Source: Candidatus Ratteibacteria bacterium
GTDB lineage: Bacteria > Ratteibacteria > UBA8468 > MWAK01
Length of the DNA: 64,000 nucleotides
Reading direction: 5' to 3'
NCBI GenBank assembly: GCA_041653615.1
Contig: JBAZEZ010000005.1
Location: forward strand, 23,289-87,288
Below the pieces are notes generated by a model that saw only the letters and a program-made list of their open reading frames with translations, was not told the origin of the DNA and searched no databases. Below, piece by piece: positions 7,024 through 62,636 of the stretch (its first letter is position 1; each line of letters begins with the position of its first letter). The position numbers and the translations under genes were made by a program.

Positions 7024-7169
7024 TGTTCACTTTTGTTAAGGCATTTTTTGTTCAAGTATTGGTACAAATTTGTGCAGTATGTACAAATTGGAACGCATGT
7101 TTGATTTTTCTTTGATAACATTTTGACAAAAACAGCGTATTTATGTTCTAATATTGGAAACGTTGCAAT

Positions 7170-7257
7170 ACGGGGAGGTCGTAAAAGCGGCCTGAGAGTT
7201 TCGAGAAACCATCGGATAACCCGCGGAACCTGATCTGGATAATGCCAGCGTAGGGAA
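7170..7257 (+). ncRNA. TPP (THI-box) riboswitch aptamer
   Basis: ACGGGGAGG...GCCTGAGAG...AACCTGATCTGGATAATGCCAGCGTAGGGAA matches the THI-box consensus (CTGAGA; ACCTGATCTGGATAATGCCAGCGTAGGGAA). Confidence 0.85.
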
Positions 7258-7275
7258 AAAAGTTCAGATGTTAAT

Positions 7276-7312
7276 GAGCCCCTATGCGCCTGGTATACGG
7301 GCTTTTTTTATT
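7276..7312 (+). terminator. intrinsic terminator (riboswitch expression platform)
   Basis: GAGCCCCTATGCGCCTGGTATACGGGCTTTTTTATT forms a stem GCCC/GGGC followed by a U-tract. Confidence 0.6.
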
Positions 7313-7319
7313 GGTATAA

Positions 7320-7388
7320 AGCCCGCCTTCGCAAAGCAGACACCTCGTTATCAGGCGGCTTCGCCGCCACAAGGTGTCCCTGCTACGG
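7320..7388 (+). promoter_or_regulatory. conserved structured 5'-leader motif (copy A) directly upstream of the thi4-1 SD
   Basis: AGCCCGCCTTCGCAAAGCAGACACCTCG-ttatca-GGCGGCTTCGCCGCC-acaAGGTGTCCCTGCTACGG. The same architecture (CCUUCGCAA / P1 / GCGGCUUYGCCGC hairpin / P1' / UGCUAYGG / SD) is seen at four other loci. Confidence 0.55.
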
Positions 7389-7438
7389 TTTTACCCGTCG
7401 AAGCTTCAGTGAAGGAGGGCGGGCAAAGGAGGAAACGC

Positions 7439-8245
7439 ATGCAACTGGATGAGATTAAGATTTCTAAGGCTATCATTGAGTCGTTTAACAAAAAACTGGT
7501 AGCCGCGTTGGATGTTGACGTGGCAATTGTCGGGGCGGGTCCGGCCGGCATGGTCTGCGGCTATTATCTGGCTAAAGCTGGAATAAAAGTAGTGCTTTTT
7601 GAAAGAAAACTTTCCGTCGGAGGCGGGATGTGGGGCGGCGGCATAATGTTCAACGAAATCGTGGTTCAAGACGCGGGCAAGAGAATTTTAGATGAATTTG
7701 GTATCAAGAGCACCCGTTACGAAAAGGGCTATTATTTGGCTGATTCCGTCGAGTCGGTTTCAACTCTCTGCTCCAAGGCGGTAAAAGCGGGGTTAAAAAT
7801 TTTCAACCTTATCAGCGTTGAAGATGTAATGGTGCGTGATAAAAGAGTGGCGGGCTTGGTATTAAATTGGACAGCGGTTGAAATGGCTAATCTGCACGTT
7901 GACCCGATTACCATGCGCGCCAAATTCGTGGTAGACGCCACCGGACATCCGGCAGAAGTGGCGCGTATTGTCGAGCGAAAATCCGGTATCCGGCTTAAGA
8001 CAAAAACAGGGAAGACCATGGGTGAACAATCCATGTGGGCACAGGTGGGAGAAGATATAATTGTGAATAATTCCAAAGAAATCTGCCCCGGCCTGTATGC
8101 TTGCGGCATGTGCGCGAACGCGGTATTCGGCGGTCCGCGCATGGGTCCCATCTTCGGCGGAATGCTTCTGGCGGGAGAAAAAGTCGCCAAAGATTTGATT
8201 AAAAGACTTTCAAGTTCAATCGACAAGGCGCGCCGTATCGGGTGA
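7439..8245 (+). CDS. thi4: Thi4-family thiazole synthase (archaeal/anaerobe type)
   Basis: [23 protein letters not shown] is an FAD Rossmann motif. ...[11 protein letters not shown]... and [20 protein letters not shown] are Thi4 signatures. The start is set at the ATG preceded by AAGGAGG (7421-7427); the longer ORF would overlap the riboswitch. Confidence 0.85.
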
Positions 8246-8961
8246 TGATTAGAAATAGAAAAAGACCCCTGTCCCGGTCGGCGTTTACGCTGATTGAACT
8301 ATTGGTGACGATTGCTATAATCGGAATACTCGCGGCGTTGCTGCTGCCGGTTTTAGGGAGTGCCAGGGAAAGAGCAAAACAGACGGTTTGCGCCAGCAAC
8401 CTCAAACAGATAGGGATGGCGTTTTACATGTATCTGAATGATTACGACGGCTTTTTCCCTTGCGCCGGCGACCCAATAAGCTCAAGCCCCGCTTACTGGT
8501 TATGGATGGGGCGGGGCTGGAAAAGTTTTGTCGCTCCCTACATCGGGAGTTCAGTTTCCGTCCGGAATCCCGGTGTTTTATTCTGTTTTTCAGACCGGAC
8601 CGCGGCCGCGAACTGGGATTCAACCTCTTACGCCTATTCCTTATCTTTTTACCACTCCCCCGAGCAGATTAACACAATGACCGATGCAAGTTATACTTAT
8701 GATGCAGGCAAGATTACCCCGACCATTCCCCAGAAAGAAGGCAGAGTCAGGTATCCCGACAAAAAGGTACTGGTAGGCGAATGGCTTGACAACCACACCG
8801 GCGGAAACAACAACTGGTGGTCCTGGGGCGGGGGGAGGAATTACCTTTTTGTTGACGGGCACGTAGAATTCATCAAAGCGAGTAACATTATACCGGCAAA
8901 CGATAACCTGCCCGATGTTAATCTCACCGTAGACGGTATTGAAGGGAAGGATGTGAATTAA
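8242..8961 (+). CDS. prepilin-type N-terminal cleavage/methylation domain protein with DUF1559 (H-X9-DG) domain
   Basis: [22 protein letters not shown] is a type-IV pilin-like N-terminus. ...[16 protein letters not shown]... and the C-terminal DGHVEF are typical of DUF1559 proteins, which are abundant in Planctomycetes, Verrucomicrobia and Omnitrophota. Confidence 0.75.
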
Positions 8962-8990
8962 GGGTTTTTTTGGTATAATGATGTAAAGAT

Positions 8991-9404
8991 ATGAAACTTT
9001 GCAGCGCGTGTTTATTGGGAATAAGCTGTCGGCACGACGGCAAGAGCAAAACAAACAAGAAAATTATCAAACTTTCCGAAAAAGAGAACTTAATTCCTGT
9101 CTGCCCGGAACAGTTAGGGGGCCTGCCGACACCCAGAAAATCTTCAGAGCAAAAAGGGAGCAAAGTAATCACCGAATCCGGCCGGGATGTTACCGGGAAT
9201 TTCAAGAGAGGCGCGAACGAAGTTTTAAAAGTAGCCAAATTATTCGGCGTTCAAGAAGCAATCTTAAAACAAAACAGCCCTTCCTGCGGCTGTGGAAAAA
9301 TCCTGGACGGTTCTTTTTCGGGTAGAATCATCAAAGGAGATGGAGTTACCGCCGTTTTGCTGAAAAAGAACGGAATTAAGGTTTTGACCGAGGATGGTTT
9401 TTAG
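8991..9404 (+). CDS. DUF523 (TudS-like, Cys-rich) protein
   Basis: MKLCSACLLGISCRHDG...SPSCGCG carries a conserved Cys pattern like DUF523/2-thiouracil desulfidase family proteins. Confidence 0.45.
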   Translation: MKLCSACLLGISCRHDGKSKTNKKIIKLSEKENLIPVCPEQLGGLPTPRKSSEQKGSKVITESGRDVTGNFKRGANEVLKVAKLFGVQEAILKQNSPSCGCGKILDGSFSGRIIKGDGVTAVLLKKNGIKVLTEDGF

Positions 9405-9592
9405 CGTTGTTGAAACTCCGCCCGGAAGGCGTGTTATAATAAAAGTTAAAGATGAGTTCAAAATCGGGAAGCGGAAACGATTTCCTTGGTTGCCTGTTCT
9501 GGTTTGTCTGCCTTTTTCTGGCCATATTTATCCCCCTGATGATAATTACCCATCACCATCATCGGTGGCATTTTTAATACGGCTCATTTTCG

Positions 9593-9889
9593 ATGTCAAC
9601 AATTGACATAACCGTTGCCCACTGCTTTTCCCAGGACGAAGCCCTCCGGCGCACTCGCGGCTTATTGGAAAGAATACAAAAACAATTTGCCGGTGCAATT
9701 AACGACCTTCAACAGGAATGGAATGGAAACACCGGCACGTTCGGTTTTTCCGTGATGGGGTTGTCCATATCCGGAAAACTGTACGTGGAGCCGTCCGAAG
9801 TAAAACTTACAGCCGACCTTCCTTTCGCGGCGGTCTTCTTTAAAGATAAAATTGAGTCGGTTATCCGGGAACAGTTGGAGAATTTATAA
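9593..9889 (+). CDS. small protein resembling the putative polyhydroxyalkanoic-acid system protein family
   Basis: The 98-aa ORF MSTIDITVAHCFSQDEALRRTRGLLERIQKQF... resembles that family in length and pattern. The assignment is weak and from memory. Confidence 0.3.
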   Translation: MSTIDITVAHCFSQDEALRRTRGLLERIQKQFAGAINDLQQEWNGNTGTFGFSVMGLSISGKLYVEPSEVKLTADLPFAAVFFKDKIESVIREQLENL

Positions 9890-9931
9890 ACAGTACTCCG
9901 TGACGACTGTCATTGCGAGGAGCGAAGCAAC

Positions 9932-10177
9932 GTGGCAATCCCAACCTTGGAAAACGGGTTCTTTACCAGAATCTTCGGTTCCGGCGAGACGCTTTTAAGC
10001 TTTGATACTTATCAGTTTAAAGATTACTCCAAGGTGGTTGCAACCAGATTTAACCCGGAAGAGAAGTTAAAAAGGCGGAAAGAGGTATTCCCCAAGGATT
10101 GCCAGAAAGCCTTTGAAATGGGCGCTTGCTTTGCAAAGAGGAATGGATTCATGGATTTAAGAAGCTTAAAAAGTTAA
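9932..10177 (+). CDS. hypothetical protein
   Basis: An 81-aa ORF with a GTG start and no recognisable motifs. Confidence 0.2.
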   Translation: MAIPTLENGFFTRIFGSGETLLSFDTYQFKDYSKVVATRFNPEEKLKRRKEVFPKDCQKAFEMGACFAKRNGFMDLRSLKS

Positions 10178-10221
10178 GGGACAATAAACAAGAAGTGATC
10201 GTAATTATTCCCTTTCTATAG

Positions 10222-10740
10222 GTGAAAGTGGAGGTAGATATGGAAAACGGCTTTCGATTATTATTCCAGTTTTTAGCGGCTTTAGCAACTACCTTGGCTG
10301 CCGTTGCGGCTTGGCAAGCAACAAGGGAAACTCAAAAAAAGACCGCTGCTGACATATTAATGAAGATTACAGACGCGTATGCATCTCCTGAAATGTTAAC
10401 CGGCATGAAGCTTTTAAGTGAATGGCAAAAAAACCACGGTGAAAATTTTGCCAAGGTCTTTGGCGAATTACGGAGAAGTAATTATGATGAAATTGAGCAA
10501 ATCGATAAAGCGAGAAGGCGGTTTTCCCATTATTTTCATCAGATTAGATTATTATTGGAATGTGGTTATGTAGATAAATTTTTTGTAAAGAAAACCGTGT
10601 CAAAAGAACAAGTAGAGTTTCTGCTACGAATTATAGAACCATTAGGAAAAAGCTTAAATCCTGACTATGACCAGACCACTTTTAGGACTGTTGAGGCGAT
10701 ATTTTCGAAGGAAAAAATACTGAAATATATGGGTACATAG
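10222..10740 (+). CDS. hypothetical membrane-anchored protein at the edge of the AT-rich island
   Basis: The N-terminal hydrophobic helix LLFQFLAALATTLAAVAAW is followed by a charged helical domain with no known motif. Confidence 0.4.
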   Translation: MKVEVDMENGFRLLFQFLAALATTLAAVAAWQATRETQKKTAADILMKITDAYASPEMLTGMKLLSEWQKNHGENFAKVFGELRRSNYDEIEQIDKARRRFSHYFHQIRLLLECGYVDKFFVKKTVSKEQVEFLLRIIEPLGKSLNPDYDQTTFRTVEAIFSKEKILKYMGT

Positions 10741-11013
10741 ACAGCATTTTTTCGGTTTATGTTATTCTTTAGTTAATTTTTGACCTTCACCGAAAACTTA
10801 GTTTGGAACAGTTCAGATTGATCTTTGAACGCAGAGAAGAAGTATAATTTGAAAGGTAGAAACATTAACAAGAAAAACAGTCTGGATCAGTATCAAATCG
10901 CAAACCAGGAATTAGGTTAATTTGCCCAAAAAGGTTTAAAGACATCAAAGTTTCTGATCTTAATGTAAATTCAAAACCGTGATTATAGAAAAGCGTAGAT
11001 ATTTGACTGAATT

Positions 11014-11940
11014 ATGAATATTTGGCGATTGAACGTAAGAGAGACCCAAATTGAAGAGTGTATAAGAAATCGAAGATTTGCTTTTGATACTCGTCCCAGA
11101 AACCCGGAAATCCACAGAGGAGACGTTCTTCTCCTGCAATTAGTATTAGCCGACGCTAAGAAATTCGGTAAGGAAAGTAACAGAATCGAATTTGTTCTGA
11201 TATTTGATCACTACGAAGAGGATCATGATGGAACAGCAAGCGCTTATTATTGGCCAAGGGCAGGTAAGACATGGCGCTGGATACTTTTCTGCAGTGATGT
11301 TGTACCAACCATCCCTTTTTCTCTAGAAAAACTTTCTGTTTCTGCCAACTATTTTGGTCAAACAAACCCCGTCCGGATTTTAGAAAAGGATGTAAGCAAA
11401 ATTATCCCGTATTTATTGCGCTACGCGGCCCGGCCTATAGAAGAGATCGGAAAGAAGATACACAACATTGTTGTGCATGACGCTGCGGCCGAGTCTAAGC
11501 TTTGGGCTTTGCTGCGAAATAACGATAGGATAGTTGAAGACTTCCCGGACCAGGTTGAATGGGTCACTGTTATCGAGCGGAAAGAGATAAGGCGAAATCC
11601 GGAACTCCCTATTGCACTTAAAGAGCTCTACGATTACAAGTGTCAAGTTTGCAAGGAAGATTTTAAAGGTAAACCTTATTCAGAAACCCATCACGTTATA
11701 TGGCTCTCGCGCGGCGGGGTTGACCACAGTAATAATCTAATTGTAGTCTGTCCCAACCACCATAGAATCATACACGAAACCAAGCCCGACTTTGACAGGC
11801 ACAATCTCGCTTTTGTTTATCCGAATGGTTTTCAGGAACATCTTAAACTTAAGGACCACCTTAAGGATCCGGGTTTGCTGCAGAAGATTATTGAATGGTC
11901 GTCGAAGCGTAATAAAGTAATAGGGAAAGAAAAGACGTGA
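11014..11940 (+). CDS. PUA-like (EVE/ASCH-type) N-terminal domain fused to an HNH endonuclease; candidate modification-dependent (Type IV) restriction enzyme
   Basis: The C-terminus CQVCKEDF...ETHHVIWLSRGGVDHSNNLIVVCPNHHRIIH is a classical HNH (C-x2-C...HH...N...C-x2-HH). The N-terminus MNIWRLNVRE...GDVLLL resembles EVE/PUA-like starts. It sits in a low-GC island. Confidence 0.55.
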   Translation: MNIWRLNVRETQIEECIRNRRFAFDTRPRNPEIHRGDVLLLQLVLADAKKFGKESNRIEFVLIFDHYEEDHDGTASAYYWPRAGKTWRWILFCSDVVPTIPFSLEKLSVSANYFGQTNPVRILEKDVSKIIPYLLRYAARPIEEIGKKIHNIVVHDAAAESKLWALLRNNDRIVEDFPDQVEWVTVIERKEIRRNPELPIALKELYDYKCQVCKEDFKGKPYSETHHVIWLSRGGVDHSNNLIVVCPNHHRIIHETKPDFDRHNLAFVYPNGFQEHLKLKDHLKDPGLLQKIIEWSSKRNKVIGKEKT

Positions 11941-23165: not shown

Positions 23166-23255
23166 TATGTAGGGGAGGGGCTACGTCCCCTCCCGCCTAC
23201 GCTAAAGCTACGGCGGGCACAGCCCGCGGGCGGGGATTCAACCCCGCCCCTACAG
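23166..23255. repeat. GC-rich REP-like composite hairpin element
   Basis: tgtaGGGGAGGGGCtacgtCCCCTCCC ... GGGCGGGGattcaaCCCCGCCCctacag. It is related to 994-1105 and 41085-41140. Confidence 0.6.
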
Positions 23256-37107: not shown

Positions 37108-37881
37108 TTACTTTGATAGTTTCCGTTTTATTTCCTGAGCGGCTTTCCTACCCGAAAACAACATTCCCCCGAAAGTAGGTCCCATACGCGGTATGCCGTA
37201 TACGGAAGCCGCCGCCATTCCGACCGCAAAGAGACCGGGGTGTATTTCGCCTGTTTTTTCCACGACGAGGTTCTCTGAGGTGTTGACATCCATCGGGCCG
37301 TAACCTTGTAGTTTCAGCAAACCTCTTTTTTCCAGGCTTTTGGCTACCCAGGCGTCATGGCCGGTGGCATCGATTACGACTTTTGTTTCCAGGGCGATGG
37401 GGTCGACGCAGGTGATTTGCCTGGGCAGGGCGGAAACCGGAGCCCAGTTAATTACCGCTCCTTCCACCTGGTTGTTGCGGTAAACCACATCGTCAAATTT
37501 GGTGAGGTTCAGAATTCTGGCCCCGGAATCGCAGGCGGCGGAGATGAGTTTTGAACAGGCGGTTGGACCGTCCGCGGTAAACAGGCCGTCCGTTGCTTTT
37601 TTGTAAGGTATCTTTAACTCGTCAAGAAACTTATCGGCCGGGGCCCGGAAGGTCAGTGTATTCATGAAATAACCGCCGACCCAAAAACCCCCTCCGATGT
37701 AGTTGTTACTCTCAATCACCAATGTTTTCAGTCCGGCGTTTGCCAGGTCGCGCGCCGCTATCAGTCCGCTCGGTCCACCCCCAACTACGATGACGTCCGA
37801 AACGATATACTCGTCAAACCACCGGCTGAATTCTTTGACAATCGCCCGGCTTACCTGCGCCTCCGTTATCTTGCTGAACAT
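37108..37881 (-). CDS. thi4: Thi4-family thiazole synthase, paralog 2
   Basis: VIVVGGGPSGLIAARDLANAG ... VIDATGHDAWV ... GMAAASVYGIPRMGPTFGGM. The start is MFSKIT, preceded by GAAGGAGGAAG. Confidence 0.85.
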   Translation of the reverse strand: MFSKITEAQVSRAIVKEFSRWFDEYIVSDVIVVGGGPSGLIAARDLANAGLKTLVIESNNYIGGGFWVGGYFMNTLTFRAPADKFLDELKIPYKKATDGLFTADGPTACSKLISAACDSGARILNLTKFDDVVYRNNQVEGAVINWAPVSALPRQITCVDPIALETKVVIDATGHDAWVAKSLEKRGLLKLQGYGPMDVNTSENLVVEKTGEIHPGLFAVGMAAASVYGIPRMGPTFGGMLFSGRKAAQEIKRKLSK

Positions 37882-37895
37882 CTTCCTCCTTCGTC

Positions 37896-37966
37896 CGCCG
37901 TAGCAAGGATGCCTCGTAGCGGCAGAGCCGCTTGGAACGAGGCATCCGTATTGCGAAGGCGGGCCT
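37896..37966 (-). promoter_or_regulatory. conserved structured 5'-leader motif (copy D) between the TPP-riboswitch terminator and the thi4-2 SD
   Basis: The mRNA sense reads CCCGCCUUCGCAAUACGGAUGCCUCGU-uccaAGCGGCUCUGCCGCU-ACGAGGCAUCCUUGCUACGGCGG-ACGAAGGAGG-AUG. Confidence 0.55.
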
Positions 37967-37996
37967 TTTGACCTGAAGAGGATAAATCGCGGAGGC

Positions 37997-38045
37997 AATA
38001 AAAAACCCCTTAGGCAGGCGGTATCGCATGCAATAAGGGGTGTCC
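37997..38045 (-). terminator. intrinsic terminator of the second TPP riboswitch
   Basis: The mRNA sense reads GGACACCCCUUAUUGCAUGCGAUACCGCCUGCCUAAGGGGUUUUUUAUU. Confidence 0.6.
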
Positions 38046-38057
38046 AGGTTCATGCTT

Positions 38058-38146
38058 CTTCCCTCCGCTGGTATTACCCAGATCAGGTTCTGCGGGTTAT
38101 CTGTTTACTTCTCAGAACTCTCAGGCCGCTCTTACGACCTCCCCGT
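38058..38146 (-). ncRNA. TPP (THI-box) riboswitch aptamer, second copy
   Basis: The reverse complement reads ACGGGGAGGUCGUAAGAGCGGCCUGAGAG...AACCUGAUCUGGGUAAUACCAGCGGAGGGAAG, roughly 85% identical to 7170-7257. Confidence 0.85.
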
Positions 38147-38203
38147 TTAATTATTGATAATATTAAAGCATACCTGCGCTGTTACTGTCAAAATTTTGCA
38201 GCG

Positions 38204-60239: not shown

Positions 60240-61058
60240 TTAGCGCAGGTGATATTCGGACAATTTAACAAAGCGGAAACCTTTCTTCTTAAGTTCCGGC
60301 ACCGCGGCGATTATCCCTTCGGCAGTCTCTTTCTCCGGGTGGTTCATGTGGCAAATGATGATTGAACCTGGTCCGGCAGTAAGGAGAGCTGTCTTAACCT
60401 GCGCGGCAGAATAGGTGGCGCCTTTGTCGCCCAGTATGCTGAAACCGACCGCTTGATAACCTAATGCTTCAACGATTTTTAAAGCCACTTCGTCGTAATA
60501 GGCGGTTCCGGACCGGTAATATTTCGGTTTGCGGCCGGTCAATCGTTCTATTTTTTGACCGTTTGTTTCCACTTCTTCAAACACCTCTCCCGAATTAGCG
60601 GTGCCTTTAATGCCGTAGACCGACCGGCCGTTTACGGAGCAGGGCCGGTGTAGCCATCCGTGATTTTCAATTTCAAACAATTTGTTGCTTGCCAGCCGCT
60701 TGAATGTTTCCGGATTTTTATCAATCCAGCGGCTATTGATAAAAAGAGTGGCGGGAACGCTTTCTTGAATCAGGAAGGTTATTAATTCCGTATCGTACCC
60801 GTCTTTTTCCGAACCGCAGGCGTCAAGAGTGAGCGCGACAACTTTTTGACGCGTGTTCAGCCGGGTTTTGACGCCGGGTAGAACTTCGGCCCACTGTCGG
60901 GGGTCTTGGCCGTTGAAACGGGAAACAGTGTCCTTTTTGCTGAGGGTGCCTTGATTATTCCGGTTTTTCGGGCTTTGGCCCGAAAGGGTGGCCCCCGAAA
61001 TAAAGATAAGGACGAATACGGCCGAAAAGAGCGTAAATCCTAACGGAAAATGTCTGAT
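60240..61058 (-). CDS. polysaccharide deacetylase (NodB-homology) family protein; start codon unresolved
   Basis: ...KVVALTLDACGSEKDGYD...FEIENHGWLH... has NodB motifs (TFDDG-like, H-x-x-x-H). The ORF is open from 61079 with a signal-peptide-like FTLFSAVFVLIFISGATLS but contains no ATG/GTG/TTG before it. Confidence 0.6.
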   Translation of the reverse strand: MRHFPLGFTLFSAVFVLIFISGATLSGQSPKNRNNQGTLSKKDTVSRFNGQDPRQWAEVLPGVKTRLNTRQKVVALTLDACGSEKDGYDTELITFLIQESVPATLFINSRWIDKNPETFKRLASNKLFEIENHGWLHRPCSVNGRSVYGIKGTANSGEVFEEVETNGQKIERLTGRKPKYYRSGTAYYDEVALKIVEALGYQAVGFSILGDKGATYSAAQVKTALLTAGPGSIIICHMNHPEKETAEGIIAAVPELKKKGFRFVKLSEYHLR

Positions 61059-61289
61059 ATTCGTGGTTTTTCTTAAAGTTTAGCCGGGGAATAATGATAT
61101 TTCTTGAACTTTTAGCTGGTTTGAAATCACCTCTCGTTTCTCGGGTATGTTATCACAGATTGAAGTGTTTCTCCAGCCGGCGTCATAAGCTCGATATTTC
61201 GGGTAATGGTATCAGCACAATGATTTTTTGACACAATTGTGTTATACTAAATAGACAAAAGGTTAAATAAAAATGGGGGGGGTAAGATA

Positions 61290-61934
61290 ATGGCAGAATT
61301 ACAAAACGAGCAGGCAATTATTGTCAATGCCGGAACCGGCGAGTTTTTCGGTAAGATAAAAGAAGTTAAAAACAATGAGGAATACGAAATATCTTTTTTT
61401 GATAATAAATCGTGTTGTTGGGCATCAAAAATTTCCTCAGAAAAAAATAGCCTGGTAGGACAACAATGCCGGGTTTATTATTTAAACAAAGAAAGAATCC
61501 GCTCTTTCTTTACGGCAACCATATCTTCCGCAAATGGCAATTTCATTCTTCAGCAGAGTTCTTCCGCCGGTTCCCAGGTCAGGCAAATCAGACACTTTGC
61601 GCGTTTTAAAGTCGATTTGCCGGCAACAGTCATGAACGAAAATCTTCTAGGGAGAGGTGTTATCATAAACGATGTCCTGCCGGGTGTGGGAATCAACGTG
61701 AAAACCTTTAATATCAGCACGGGCGGAGTAGGGATAATTTCGGAAATTCCGTTTCAGCTGAATTCCTTCATTACTATAGAGGTAAATTTTTGCGGGGAAA
61801 AAGTTAAGGCAATAGGCGAGGTAAAATATTGCCTGAAAAATGATGCGCTCTTTTTTGCCGGCGTGGAGTTCATTGTAATATCGGAGGAAACAAAAGGAAG
61901 ATTGGAAAACCTGCTGCTGGTTTTGGGAGCTTAG
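61290..61934 (+). CDS. PilZ-domain (c-di-GMP-binding) protein
   Basis: RQIRHFAR (RxxxR) and NISTGGVGI (D/NxSxxG) fit the PilZ motifs. Confidence 0.5.
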   Translation: MAELQNEQAIIVNAGTGEFFGKIKEVKNNEEYEISFFDNKSCCWASKISSEKNSLVGQQCRVYYLNKERIRSFFTATISSANGNFILQQSSSAGSQVRQIRHFARFKVDLPATVMNENLLGRGVIINDVLPGVGINVKTFNISTGGVGIISEIPFQLNSFITIEVNFCGEKVKAIGEVKYCLKNDALFFAGVEFIVISEETKGRLENLLLVLGA

Positions 61935-62103
61935 CTCAAAACGGCGGGGAGGGAAATAGCTGCCCGGTGAGGATTCGGCGGTTTCGGCTTCACCGCGCCT
62001 CAACTCGGCCACCCGCTGGCAACGTTCCCTATTCGGTCGCCTCGCCTGACTTCGCTCCCCTCGAATCCTCAATACCCGGGCTTTAGGCGGGATTAAAATT
62101 GGG

Positions 62104-62174
62104 CTGCCCGGTGAGGATTCGAACCTCAACGCCCAGCTTCAAAGGCTGGTGTGCTACCATTACACAACCGGGCA
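62104..62174 (-). tRNA. tRNA-Gln (anticodon UUG)
   Basis: The reverse complement reads TGCCCGG-TT-GTGT-AATGGTA-GCAC-A-CCAGC-CTTTGAA-GCTGG-GCGT-TGAGG-TTCGAAT-CCTCA-CCGGGCA-G. The cloverleaf has 7-bp acceptor and 5-bp anticodon and T stems. CCA is not encoded. Confidence 0.8.
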
Positions 62175-62183
62175 ATAACTATA

Positions 62184-62214
62184 GTGAATAGTGAACTGTG
62201 AACAGTGAACGGTA
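62184..62214. repeat. left GTGAA-rich inverted repeat flanking the four-helix-bundle cassette
   Basis: AGTGAATAGTGAACTGTGAACAGTGAACGGTAA is an imperfect reverse complement of 62606-62634. Confidence 0.6.
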
Positions 62215-62219
62215 ACAGA

Positions 62220-62606
62220 CTAAACTGCTGTTTTTAGTTTTCTAACCAATCCTGAAATAAGCTTGAAAGTTGTGGTTGTCAACGAAACAGTATCTTTGTA
62301 ATTACGTTCATTTAGATAGTTTAACTTTAACGATATTTCCAGTTGTGTGTCAAGTTCACTTAAAGAACCTTGAGATATACTCAGAAATTGTAAGAATTCC
62401 TTCGTAGAATTACGTGCTGCTCCTTCCGCAATATTACTGGCAACCGATACTGCACATCTGCGCATCTGATTCGTCAATCCATAAATTTCTTCTTTTGGGA
62501 AAAGGCTTGTTATTTTGTAAATTATTTCCGTTAGTTCTATAGATTTTTGCCACACTTCCAATTTTTTATGCGGTCTTACTGCTTCATTTGTTTTATCTTT
62601 TTCCAT
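62220..62606 (-). CDS. four-helix-bundle protein (23S rRNA intervening-sequence protein family)
   Basis: ...LEVWQKSIELTEIIYKITSLFPKEEIYGLTNQMRRCAVSVASNIAEGAAR... matches the characteristic family (Q.RRA.SI..NIAEG). It is flanked by inverted repeats. Confidence 0.7.
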   Translation of the reverse strand: MEKDKTNEAVRPHKKLEVWQKSIELTEIIYKITSLFPKEEIYGLTNQMRRCAVSVASNIAEGAARNSTKEFLQFLSISQGSLSELDTQLEISLKLNYLNERNYKDTVSLTTTTFKLISGLVRKLKTAV

Positions 62607-62634
62607 TCACCGTTCACCATTTACCATTCACTGC
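62606..62634. repeat. right GTGAA-rich inverted repeat flanking the four-helix-bundle cassette
   Basis: TTCACCGTTCACCATTTACCATTCACTG overlaps the start codon. Confidence 0.6.
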
Positions 62635-62636
62635 TT

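Follow-up and report, generated by a model that had tools for sequence, protein, structure and literature searches.

The DNA analysed here, a stretch of 64,000 nucleotides referred to as the window, contains an intact tRNA-Gln(UUG) gene on the minus strand, as the first-pass annotation had proposed. ARAGORN places this gene at 62100-62175 and finds it to be the sole tRNA of the window. In the tRNA sense, the gene is followed by a spacer, an inverted and interrupted copy of the tRNA 3' end (arm B), an 83-nt interior, a direct copy of the same 3' end (arm A), and the 3' end of a convergent PilZ-domain gene. The element from arm A to arm B, just downstream of tRNA-Gln, comprises 123 bases and is non-coding. 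The features of the locus are as follows.

62104-62174, minus strand: intact tRNA-Gln(UUG) gene (Rfam RF00005 tRNA model, 62.7 bits)
62103-62121, minus strand: copy C, the 3' end of the tRNA-Gln gene itself, which is the repeated core (sequence comparison)
62082-62102, minus strand: spacer of ~21-24 nt from the tRNA end to arm B (alignments with relatives)
62061-62081, minus strand: arm B, an interrupted inverted copy of the core (11-nt and 6-nt exact reverse complement)
61978-62060, minus strand: unit interior, 83 nt, non-coding (homologous to unit 2 of the relative L089; reverse complement of the units of L085 and L110)
62018-62046, minus strand: inner stem-loop H2, GGCGAGGC-GACCGAATAGGGA-ACGTTGCC (consensus fold)
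61959-61977, minus strand: arm A, a direct copy of the core at the distal unit boundary, in attR-like position (19 of 19 nt identical to copy C)

Several other genes surround these features. Between purH and tRNA-Gln, the window carries a gene for a 23S-rRNA-intervening-sequence/four-helix-bundle protein (128 aa, 62220-62606, minus strand; PF05635, E = 6.5e-39), and the GC content of this region is low (34-36%). The PF05635 ORF is bracketed by inverted GTGAAYNGTGAAC-type repeat arrays (~62184-62215 and 62607-62636), which could form a long stem, and the cassette is absent from this position in the relatives L084, L110, L086, and L087. On the other side of the element, polysaccharide-deacetylase and PilZ genes occupy positions 60240-61934, between a MacB-type permease gene and the element, with part of this segment being low in GC (35-44%). 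In the relative L085, the deacetylase and PilZ genes are absent and the permease gene abuts the unit (2790-2996), which is another indel at the same hot spot.

Copy C runs from midway in the T-loop (CGAAT) through the 3' strands of the T-stem and acceptor stem to the discriminator G and ~1-2 nt beyond. Copy C and arm A both read GCTGCCCGGTGAGGATTCG on the plus strand; arm A in the tRNA sense is CGAATCCTCACCGGGCAGC, and the 17-nt core of the tRNA-Gln 3' end is CGAATCCTCACCGGGCA. The two direct copies are spaced 144 bp start to start, with 125 bp between them, and are the only core matches in the 64 kb when up to 3 mismatches are allowed. Shuffled sequences gave a mean of 0.03 matches, with none of 100 shuffles containing two or more, and a chance origin of the direct repeat was thereby ruled out. 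The direct copy reported by the first-pass annotation is thus an exact repeat of 19 nt, although it lies at 61959-61977 and not at 61963-61981. Arm B reads TCGAATCCTCA-ATAC-CCGGGC on the plus strand and GCCCGG-GTAT-TGAGGATTCGA in the tRNA sense, and its 4-nt insert (62072-62075) is located exactly at the acceptor/T-stem junction. By our estimate, the chance of finding a specific 10-11-mer within ~150 nt is of the order of 1e-4. The opposite-orientation fragment previously placed at 62061-62079 is therefore real, but it extends to 62081 and is split by 4 nt. Arm B (62061-62081) and arm A (61959-61977) constitute terminal inverted repeats, and no target-site duplication flanks them in the window sequence. 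The left edge of identity, between ..GCC and CGAATCC, is common to the window and the relatives L087 and L089, and in the relatives each core copy is followed by a spacer of similar length with a Y-rich end (...CCTGAA/CCTAAA). The direct-repeat geometry had been attributed to integrase-type insertion, and it does match the insertion pattern at tRNA and tmRNA genes, such as Dehalococcoides ssrA.

Arm B can pair with the copy at 61962-61977 to form a 10+6 bp stem with a 4-nt bulge that encloses 84 nt, in good agreement with the stem of roughly 16 bp around about 80 nt described before. An equally good partner for arm B is the 3' half of the tRNA itself, with a 24-nt loop, and this pairing is the computed optimum for the whole precursor. 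The RNA folding energy of the whole region is not unusual (z = -0.2), and folding as single-stranded DNA is modestly unusual (z = -2.7 and -2.1). The consensus fold consists of the terminal stem, whose arms are both tied to tRNA sequence, and one inner hairpin, H2. Conservation of the H2 loop (12-13 nt, GAC(N)GAWTARGGA) extends over four units, with the H2 stem being variable; covariation in H2 was not significant, with 75 of 500 shuffles reaching the observed score, despite two pairs being changed on both sides. In the window, L087, and L089, the 4-nt bulge interrupts the 16-bp stem at one and the same place; L085 and L110 lack the bulge. There is no ORF or coding capacity within the window unit, and inspection by eye revealed no conserved small-peptide ORF in the interior. 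No promoter-like site was found in the interior, nor was a consistent T-run found after the hairpin.

No Rfam (15) family was detected over 61959-62081, even at E <= 10, or in the related loci, and the tRNA covariance model identified no second tRNA over the same positions at E <= 10. A second tRNA, a pseudo-tRNA, and a tmRNA were each considered and rejected, with neither Rfam nor ARAGORN giving a match. A Pfam scan of the 46 ORFs of the window, which extends 62 kb downstream and 2 kb upstream of the tRNA, revealed no integrase, invertase, or transposase; the integrase with a matching attP that the first-pass annotation had envisaged was thus missing from these ORFs, and no phage attP match was obtained either. 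The flanks of the relatives likewise yielded no recombinase. A downstream gene in L087 was considered as a candidate integrase and rejected, as its product is an HTH_17-T2SSE ATPase. We also looked for a phage attP or a phage-borne tRNA-Gln by scanning IMG/VR for three patterns, namely arm B, the 17-nt core, and the motif of the inner loop, and this candidate was rejected: only chance matches inside coding DNA were returned, with no tRNA nearby. No phage, plasmid, or IMG/VR sequence contained the core in an attP-like context, and blastn against plasmids and phages showed no similarity.

Among the window ORFs are genes for efflux systems, purine, thiamine, and sulfur amino-acid genes, and a gene for an HNH protein. 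Two TPP riboswitches exceed the Rfam threshold (7161-7274, plus strand, and 38043-38155, minus strand; 63 and 62 bits), with a Thi4-family gene just downstream of each (7268-8245, plus strand, and 37108-37998, minus strand, respectively). After the gene for the HNH-endonuclease-domain protein (11014-11940) comes an ORF of 263 aa that matches no Pfam family (region to 12747), and the ~2 kb upstream of the HNH gene (8961-11014) contain no ORF of at least 180 aa; the segment 11014-12747 might be a defence or mobile module.

Relatives of this locus were located by means of a protein search with the neighbouring purH and contig look-up. They form a candidate-division-TA06-like clade, one member being labelled candidate division TA06 by its source. 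A purH scan of genome contigs returned, among the matches listed, only relatives of at most 50% identity, none with this tRNA end. The contigs L092, L095, L096, L108, and L109 end at or before the tRNA and are uninformative; in every relative with a sufficiently long contig, purH has tRNA-Gln directly downstream. The window strain is present in three other assemblies, four in total, with 100% identical sequence. In L084, whose purH is 93% identical to that of the window, the 477 nt available before the contig end contain no unit, only REP-like hairpins. One unit each is found in L110 (purH 92% identical) and L085 (88%), whereas L086 (70%) has none. L087, L088, and L105 (purH 70%) each contain one unit of ~285 bp, and L089, with the same purH protein as L087, has two units and a third junction that stops after GCCCGG, so that a 46-nt junction is present three times. 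Copy number therefore differs between strains with an identical purH protein, namely one in L087, L088, and L105, and two plus a truncated third in L089. Within a strain only a single orientation was seen, both in the four assemblies of the window strain and in six assemblies of the L087 species.

Numerous assemblies and contigs break exactly behind this tRNA, and the downstream flanks are unalignable and different in every lineage. Because of these unalignable flanks, and because none of the lineages compared offers an empty site with the same flanks, the insertion boundaries given here are those that we infer rather than ones that were demonstrated. The comparison of the locus, which the first-pass annotation had suggested, indicates that the DNA downstream of tRNA-Gln is an insertion hot spot in every relative. 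In a small control sample, 13 non-Gln tRNAs at unrelated loci had no such downstream repeats.

The tRNA genes and their surroundings differ in further respects. At position 37 (62145), the anticodon loop of the window tRNA-Gln reads CTTTGAA (A37), and that of all relatives examined reads CTTTGGA (G37). The discriminator is G in the window, L084, L085, L110, and L086, and A in L087 and L089, and the base found in the local tRNA is also that of its downstream direct copies. In the segment 2219-2540 of L085, an ORF for a GIY-YIG nuclease (PF01541, E = 4.7e-16) lies immediately upstream of tRNA-Gln and is preceded by a duplicated tRNA 5' half up to the anticodon loop (~2219-2256), which gives the impression that a small cassette entered the anticodon loop carrying a 5' half of its own. 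Within 1620-2210, the same relative has an ORF for an IS200-like Y1 transposase (RAYT-like, PF01797) flanked by REP-type hairpins with GTAG heads, e.g., tgtagcggtgcgatttatcgcac. Similar hairpins of REP-like type, as well as the motif GTAGCTTTAGCGAAGG, are found again near the tRNA of relatives and within the larger units (L084 5410-5450 and 5560-5830; L110 7585-7650), with a near-copy in the window at 23196-23211.

The units behind this tRNA range from ~100 to 385 bp and form a family that spans lineages with purH only 70% identical. The window unit aligns along its length with unit 2 of L089, which has an extra REP-like insert of ~105 nt; the two interiors match with z = 12.8, and the first 57 interior positions are identical at 48. 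L087 and unit 1 of L089 share a 5' module, which comprises the spacer, arm B with a TGCT insert at the same position, and GGGAGC, as well as a 3' module, and their centres differ; in L089 unit 1, a 108-nt insert interrupts arm A. Similarity of the L085 and L110 units to the window unit and L089 unit 2 is seen only after reverse complementation, with z = 4.3 and 3.7 in that orientation and -1.2 and -1.7 in the forward one, and hence the unit is inverted relative to the tRNA in these two relatives. Even so, both still have an inverted-type arm beside the tRNA, and at the far side 13-18 nt of the tRNA end recur in direct orientation; arm B is decayed in L110. In L085, TACAGCCC comes after the distal copy, but in L110 it comes after the tRNA, an arrangement consistent with recombination between direct repeats having removed a first unit.

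Four-fold degenerate sites of purH served as the neutral yardstick for the conservation of the units. L085 and L110 are identical at 0.71 of these sites, and their units are identical at 95 of 100 positions. The window and L089 share 0.49 of the four-fold sites, which is near saturation, and the window interior is identical to that of L089 unit 2 at 84% (48 of 57). Between the window and L110 the four-fold identity is 0.83, and the L110 unit is inverted and 95% identical to that of L085; between the window and L085 it is 0.72, and the unit is inverted and, by our count, ~60% similar. The units are thus conserved, or have spread, far better than neutral DNA, and their relationships disagree with those of their hosts, the window unit being nearest to that of the distant L089 and not to those of the close relatives L110 and L085. 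Neither a passive scar nor vertical inheritance of a host element readily accounts for above-neutral identity together with this mismatch to the host tree; turnover and exchange of a mobile unit would produce that pattern. No other copy of the unit was present in the 64-kb window or in the 1.1 Mb of loci compared, and when all JGI metagenome contigs were scanned for arm B plus the adjacent module, matches occurred at the purH-tRNA-Gln locus only. The unit, being restricted to one locus, is therefore not a dispersed MITE.

On these grounds we tentatively propose, with somewhat less than even confidence, that 61959-62102 is one unit of a lineage-specific group of gene-less, site-specific insertion elements at the 3' end of tRNA-Gln. 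Each unit would consist of a ~23-nt spacer, an inverted and interrupted copy of the tRNA 3' end, a structured interior, and a direct copy of the tRNA 3' end. Crossover in the T-loop would leave the tRNA intact, and the displaced copy of the tRNA end would mark the far boundary, as in integrase-mediated insertion. Because every insertion would regenerate the target, units could accrete head to tail, and they could be lost again through recombination between direct repeats. A unit could insert or flip in either orientation, given that its arms copy one core in opposite directions. The units would be attachment-site DNA only, mobilised by a recombinase encoded elsewhere. We infer that the movement is driven by a site-specific recombinase, and likewise that the units are mobile to this day and were not immobilised recently.

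The points that argue for such elements are the repeat geometry, the homology of the units, their stacking, presence or absence, and two orientations, the restriction to one locus, and the conservation together with the host-tree mismatch. Other small selfish cassettes at the same tRNA, namely the 23S-IVP gene in the window and the GIY-YIG and IS200-like Y1 transposase genes in L085, lend further support. Several points speak against it. A double-stranded circular intermediate would be very small at a unit length of 121-144 bp, and the inverted arm is superfluous in the standard integrase model. The four identical assemblies of the window strain give no sign of ongoing movement in that population. 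Neither the window ORFs nor the flanks of relatives revealed a recombinase, and no attP-like context was found in phages, plasmids, or IMG/VR. Selection for a host function could equally yield above-neutral conservation. As regards the earlier interpretation of a remnant att site, the att-like geometry is retained, but a one-off scar does not fit homologous units that stack and occur in both orientations. The idea of an att-like site is thus partly supported, and the term scar undersells the repeat-flanked segment.

A host function could reside in a useful structure with which the tRNA-Gln transcript ends, namely a long hairpin made of tRNA-end sequence. Such a hairpin might act as terminator or insulator for the convergent genes, serve as a processing signal of the RNase P/RNase III type, or yield a small RNA from the tRNA trailer. 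The units are always directly 3' of tRNA-Gln and lie between convergent genes in 4 of 5 contexts (the window, L085, L110, and L089), and they offer a stable terminal stem, an interior conserved above synonymous sites, and an inner hairpin with a conserved loop on a variable stem. In addition, both arm substitutions (in arm A of L087 and arm B of L089 unit 2) give G-U pairs on the tRNA-sense strand. We nevertheless consider a host element unlikely, because the unit is absent from L084 and L086 and variable in copy number within one species. The units of L085 and L110 are inverted yet 95% conserved, and a transcript initiated at the tRNA would carry their complement. Broken arms are tolerated, as illustrated by the 108-nt insert in arm A of L089 unit 1 and by the decayed arm B of L110, and a consistent T-run, an Rfam family, and significant covariation are all missing from these units. 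Pairing of arm B with the 3' half of the tRNA, which is the predicted optimum, would be expected to harm tRNA folding.

Alternatively, the units may be passive relics with neither activity nor function, left by a decayed, cargo-deleted island or by decayed tandem copies of tRNA-Gln, and rearranged afterwards through duplications at the locus, inversions across the inverted arms, and minor insertions. According to the tandem-copy version, a unit would represent the acceptor 5' strand, a 4-nt remnant, the T-arm, and a T-loop insertion. The 4-nt insert of arm B indeed lies at the acceptor/T-stem junction, exactly where the D and anticodon arms would have been deleted, the spacers between core copies are alike, as in a tandem tRNA array, and no recombinase was found. 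Furthermore, partial tRNAs are well known as debris of old integrations (bioRxiv 10.1101/2020.12.28.424599). Relics should, however, drift neutrally, whereas the units are identical at 95% and 84% where four-fold sites are identical at 71% and 49%, and the flanks are unalignable. Their similarity does not track host relatedness, the interior bears no resemblance to a D or anticodon arm, with no second tRNA at E <= 10, and copy number differs between strains with identical purH. We therefore regard passive relics, too, as a rather improbable explanation.

A more specific proposal concerns single-stranded DNA. By analogy with known folded recombination sites, the two arms may snap into a stem that mimics the double-stranded 3' end of the tRNA-Gln gene, and the unit would then be a recombination substrate folded from a single strand. 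The 4-nt extrahelical bulge would mark one strand, as in attC or the CTX-phi attP hairpin, and a recombinase specific for the tRNA end would insert gene-less circles of ~145 nt, whichever way round, and every insertion would restore the target. We present this only as a speculation that is very unlikely to be correct; if it were, the units would represent a new class of minimal, tRNA-mimicking, hairpin-borne mobile element. Least probable of all is an invertible DNA switch, in which a site-specific invertase would flip the 83-bp interior by way of the inverted arms and alter the expression of a neighbouring gene: there are inverted arms of 16-17 bp around a short segment and both orientations exist among lineages, but the two orientations are ~40% diverged, so that the flip is old and not that of a running switch, only one orientation occurs in the four window-strain and six L087-species assemblies, no invertase gene is nearby, the interior has no promoter-like site, the neighbours are convergent with nothing obvious to switch, and arm B is decayed in L110.

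If the units do move as site-specific insertion elements, they would rank with the smallest known elements that integrate site-specifically, being parasites of a tRNA-targeting recombinase, and a fast-turning-over array would be possible at a tRNA 3' flank with no integrase in sight. This would affect how "partial tRNA" signals in metagenome-assembled genomes are read, as such signals also break assemblies at these positions. Should the hairpin serve the host instead, it would be an unusual tRNA-trailer structure made from the tRNA's own sequence. So far, the units are confined to one uncultured clade related to candidate division TA06, and we view them as a modest curiosity and not as a major surprise.

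Several known systems resemble these units in part. At the ssrA gene of Dehalococcoides, tandem islands with 20-bp repeats of the ssrA 3' end result from insertion midway in the T-loop, and a subset of these islands, devoid of integration genes, was put forward as cis-mobilizable elements (CIMEs) (PMC3146451). The units behind tRNA-Gln share with ssrA islands and CIMEs the intact gene, head-to-tail stacking downstream of it, a strain-variable number, and the presence of units that contain no integration gene. A CIME is defined by retention of attL and attR with no recombination or transfer genes between them, and the architecture of the units agrees with this definition. Of the features of an integrative element at a tRNA, the bounding direct repeat and the intact tRNA are present, and the internal integrase gene is absent. 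In contrast to ssrA islands and CIMEs, whose known examples carry kilobases of cargo, the units are 120-385 bp long and contain no gene; they also begin with an inverted copy of the core, such that their ends form a hairpin, occur in both orientations, and have no cognate integrase that we could see.

Partial tRNAs have also been described as remnants of repeated integration at one site by tycheposons and related elements in Prochlorococcus islands (bioRxiv 10.1101/2020.12.28.424599). Partial tRNA copies downstream of a full tRNA and tandem junctions are common to such remnants and to the units, but tycheposon remnants are scattered debris beside integrase-bearing elements, whereas the units constitute a coherent, conserved homologous family with a fixed architecture.

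With MITEs, BOX, REP/BIME, and Correia elements, the units have in common a size of 100-400 bp, inverted-repeat ends, a modular hairpin-rich interior, occurrence in either orientation, and nested insertions. Unlike those elements, the units are not dispersed and occupy one locus per genome as far as is visible; they also differ from MITEs in that there is no target-site duplication and the inverted ends copy the end of the adjacent tRNA gene. Integron attC sites and the CTX-phi attP(+) hairpin are folded single-strand recombination sites that imitate a double-stranded chromosomal target. The units resemble them in having inverted target-like copies ~85-90 nt apart and a target that would be regenerated on insertion, which would lead to arrays. 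A foldable stem with unpaired bases at a fixed position may be a further resemblance, the bulge being seen in the window, L087, and L089 and absent in L085 and L110. They differ in that the arms contain no R/L box (GTTRRRY) or dif-like site and that no integron integrase or filamentous-phage genes accompany them, and involvement of single-stranded DNA is, for the units, a prediction only. Compared with all of these systems, what seems unusual about the units behind tRNA-Gln is the combination of a gene-less length of 120-385 bp, a start with an inverted core whose ends form a hairpin, and occurrence in both orientations.
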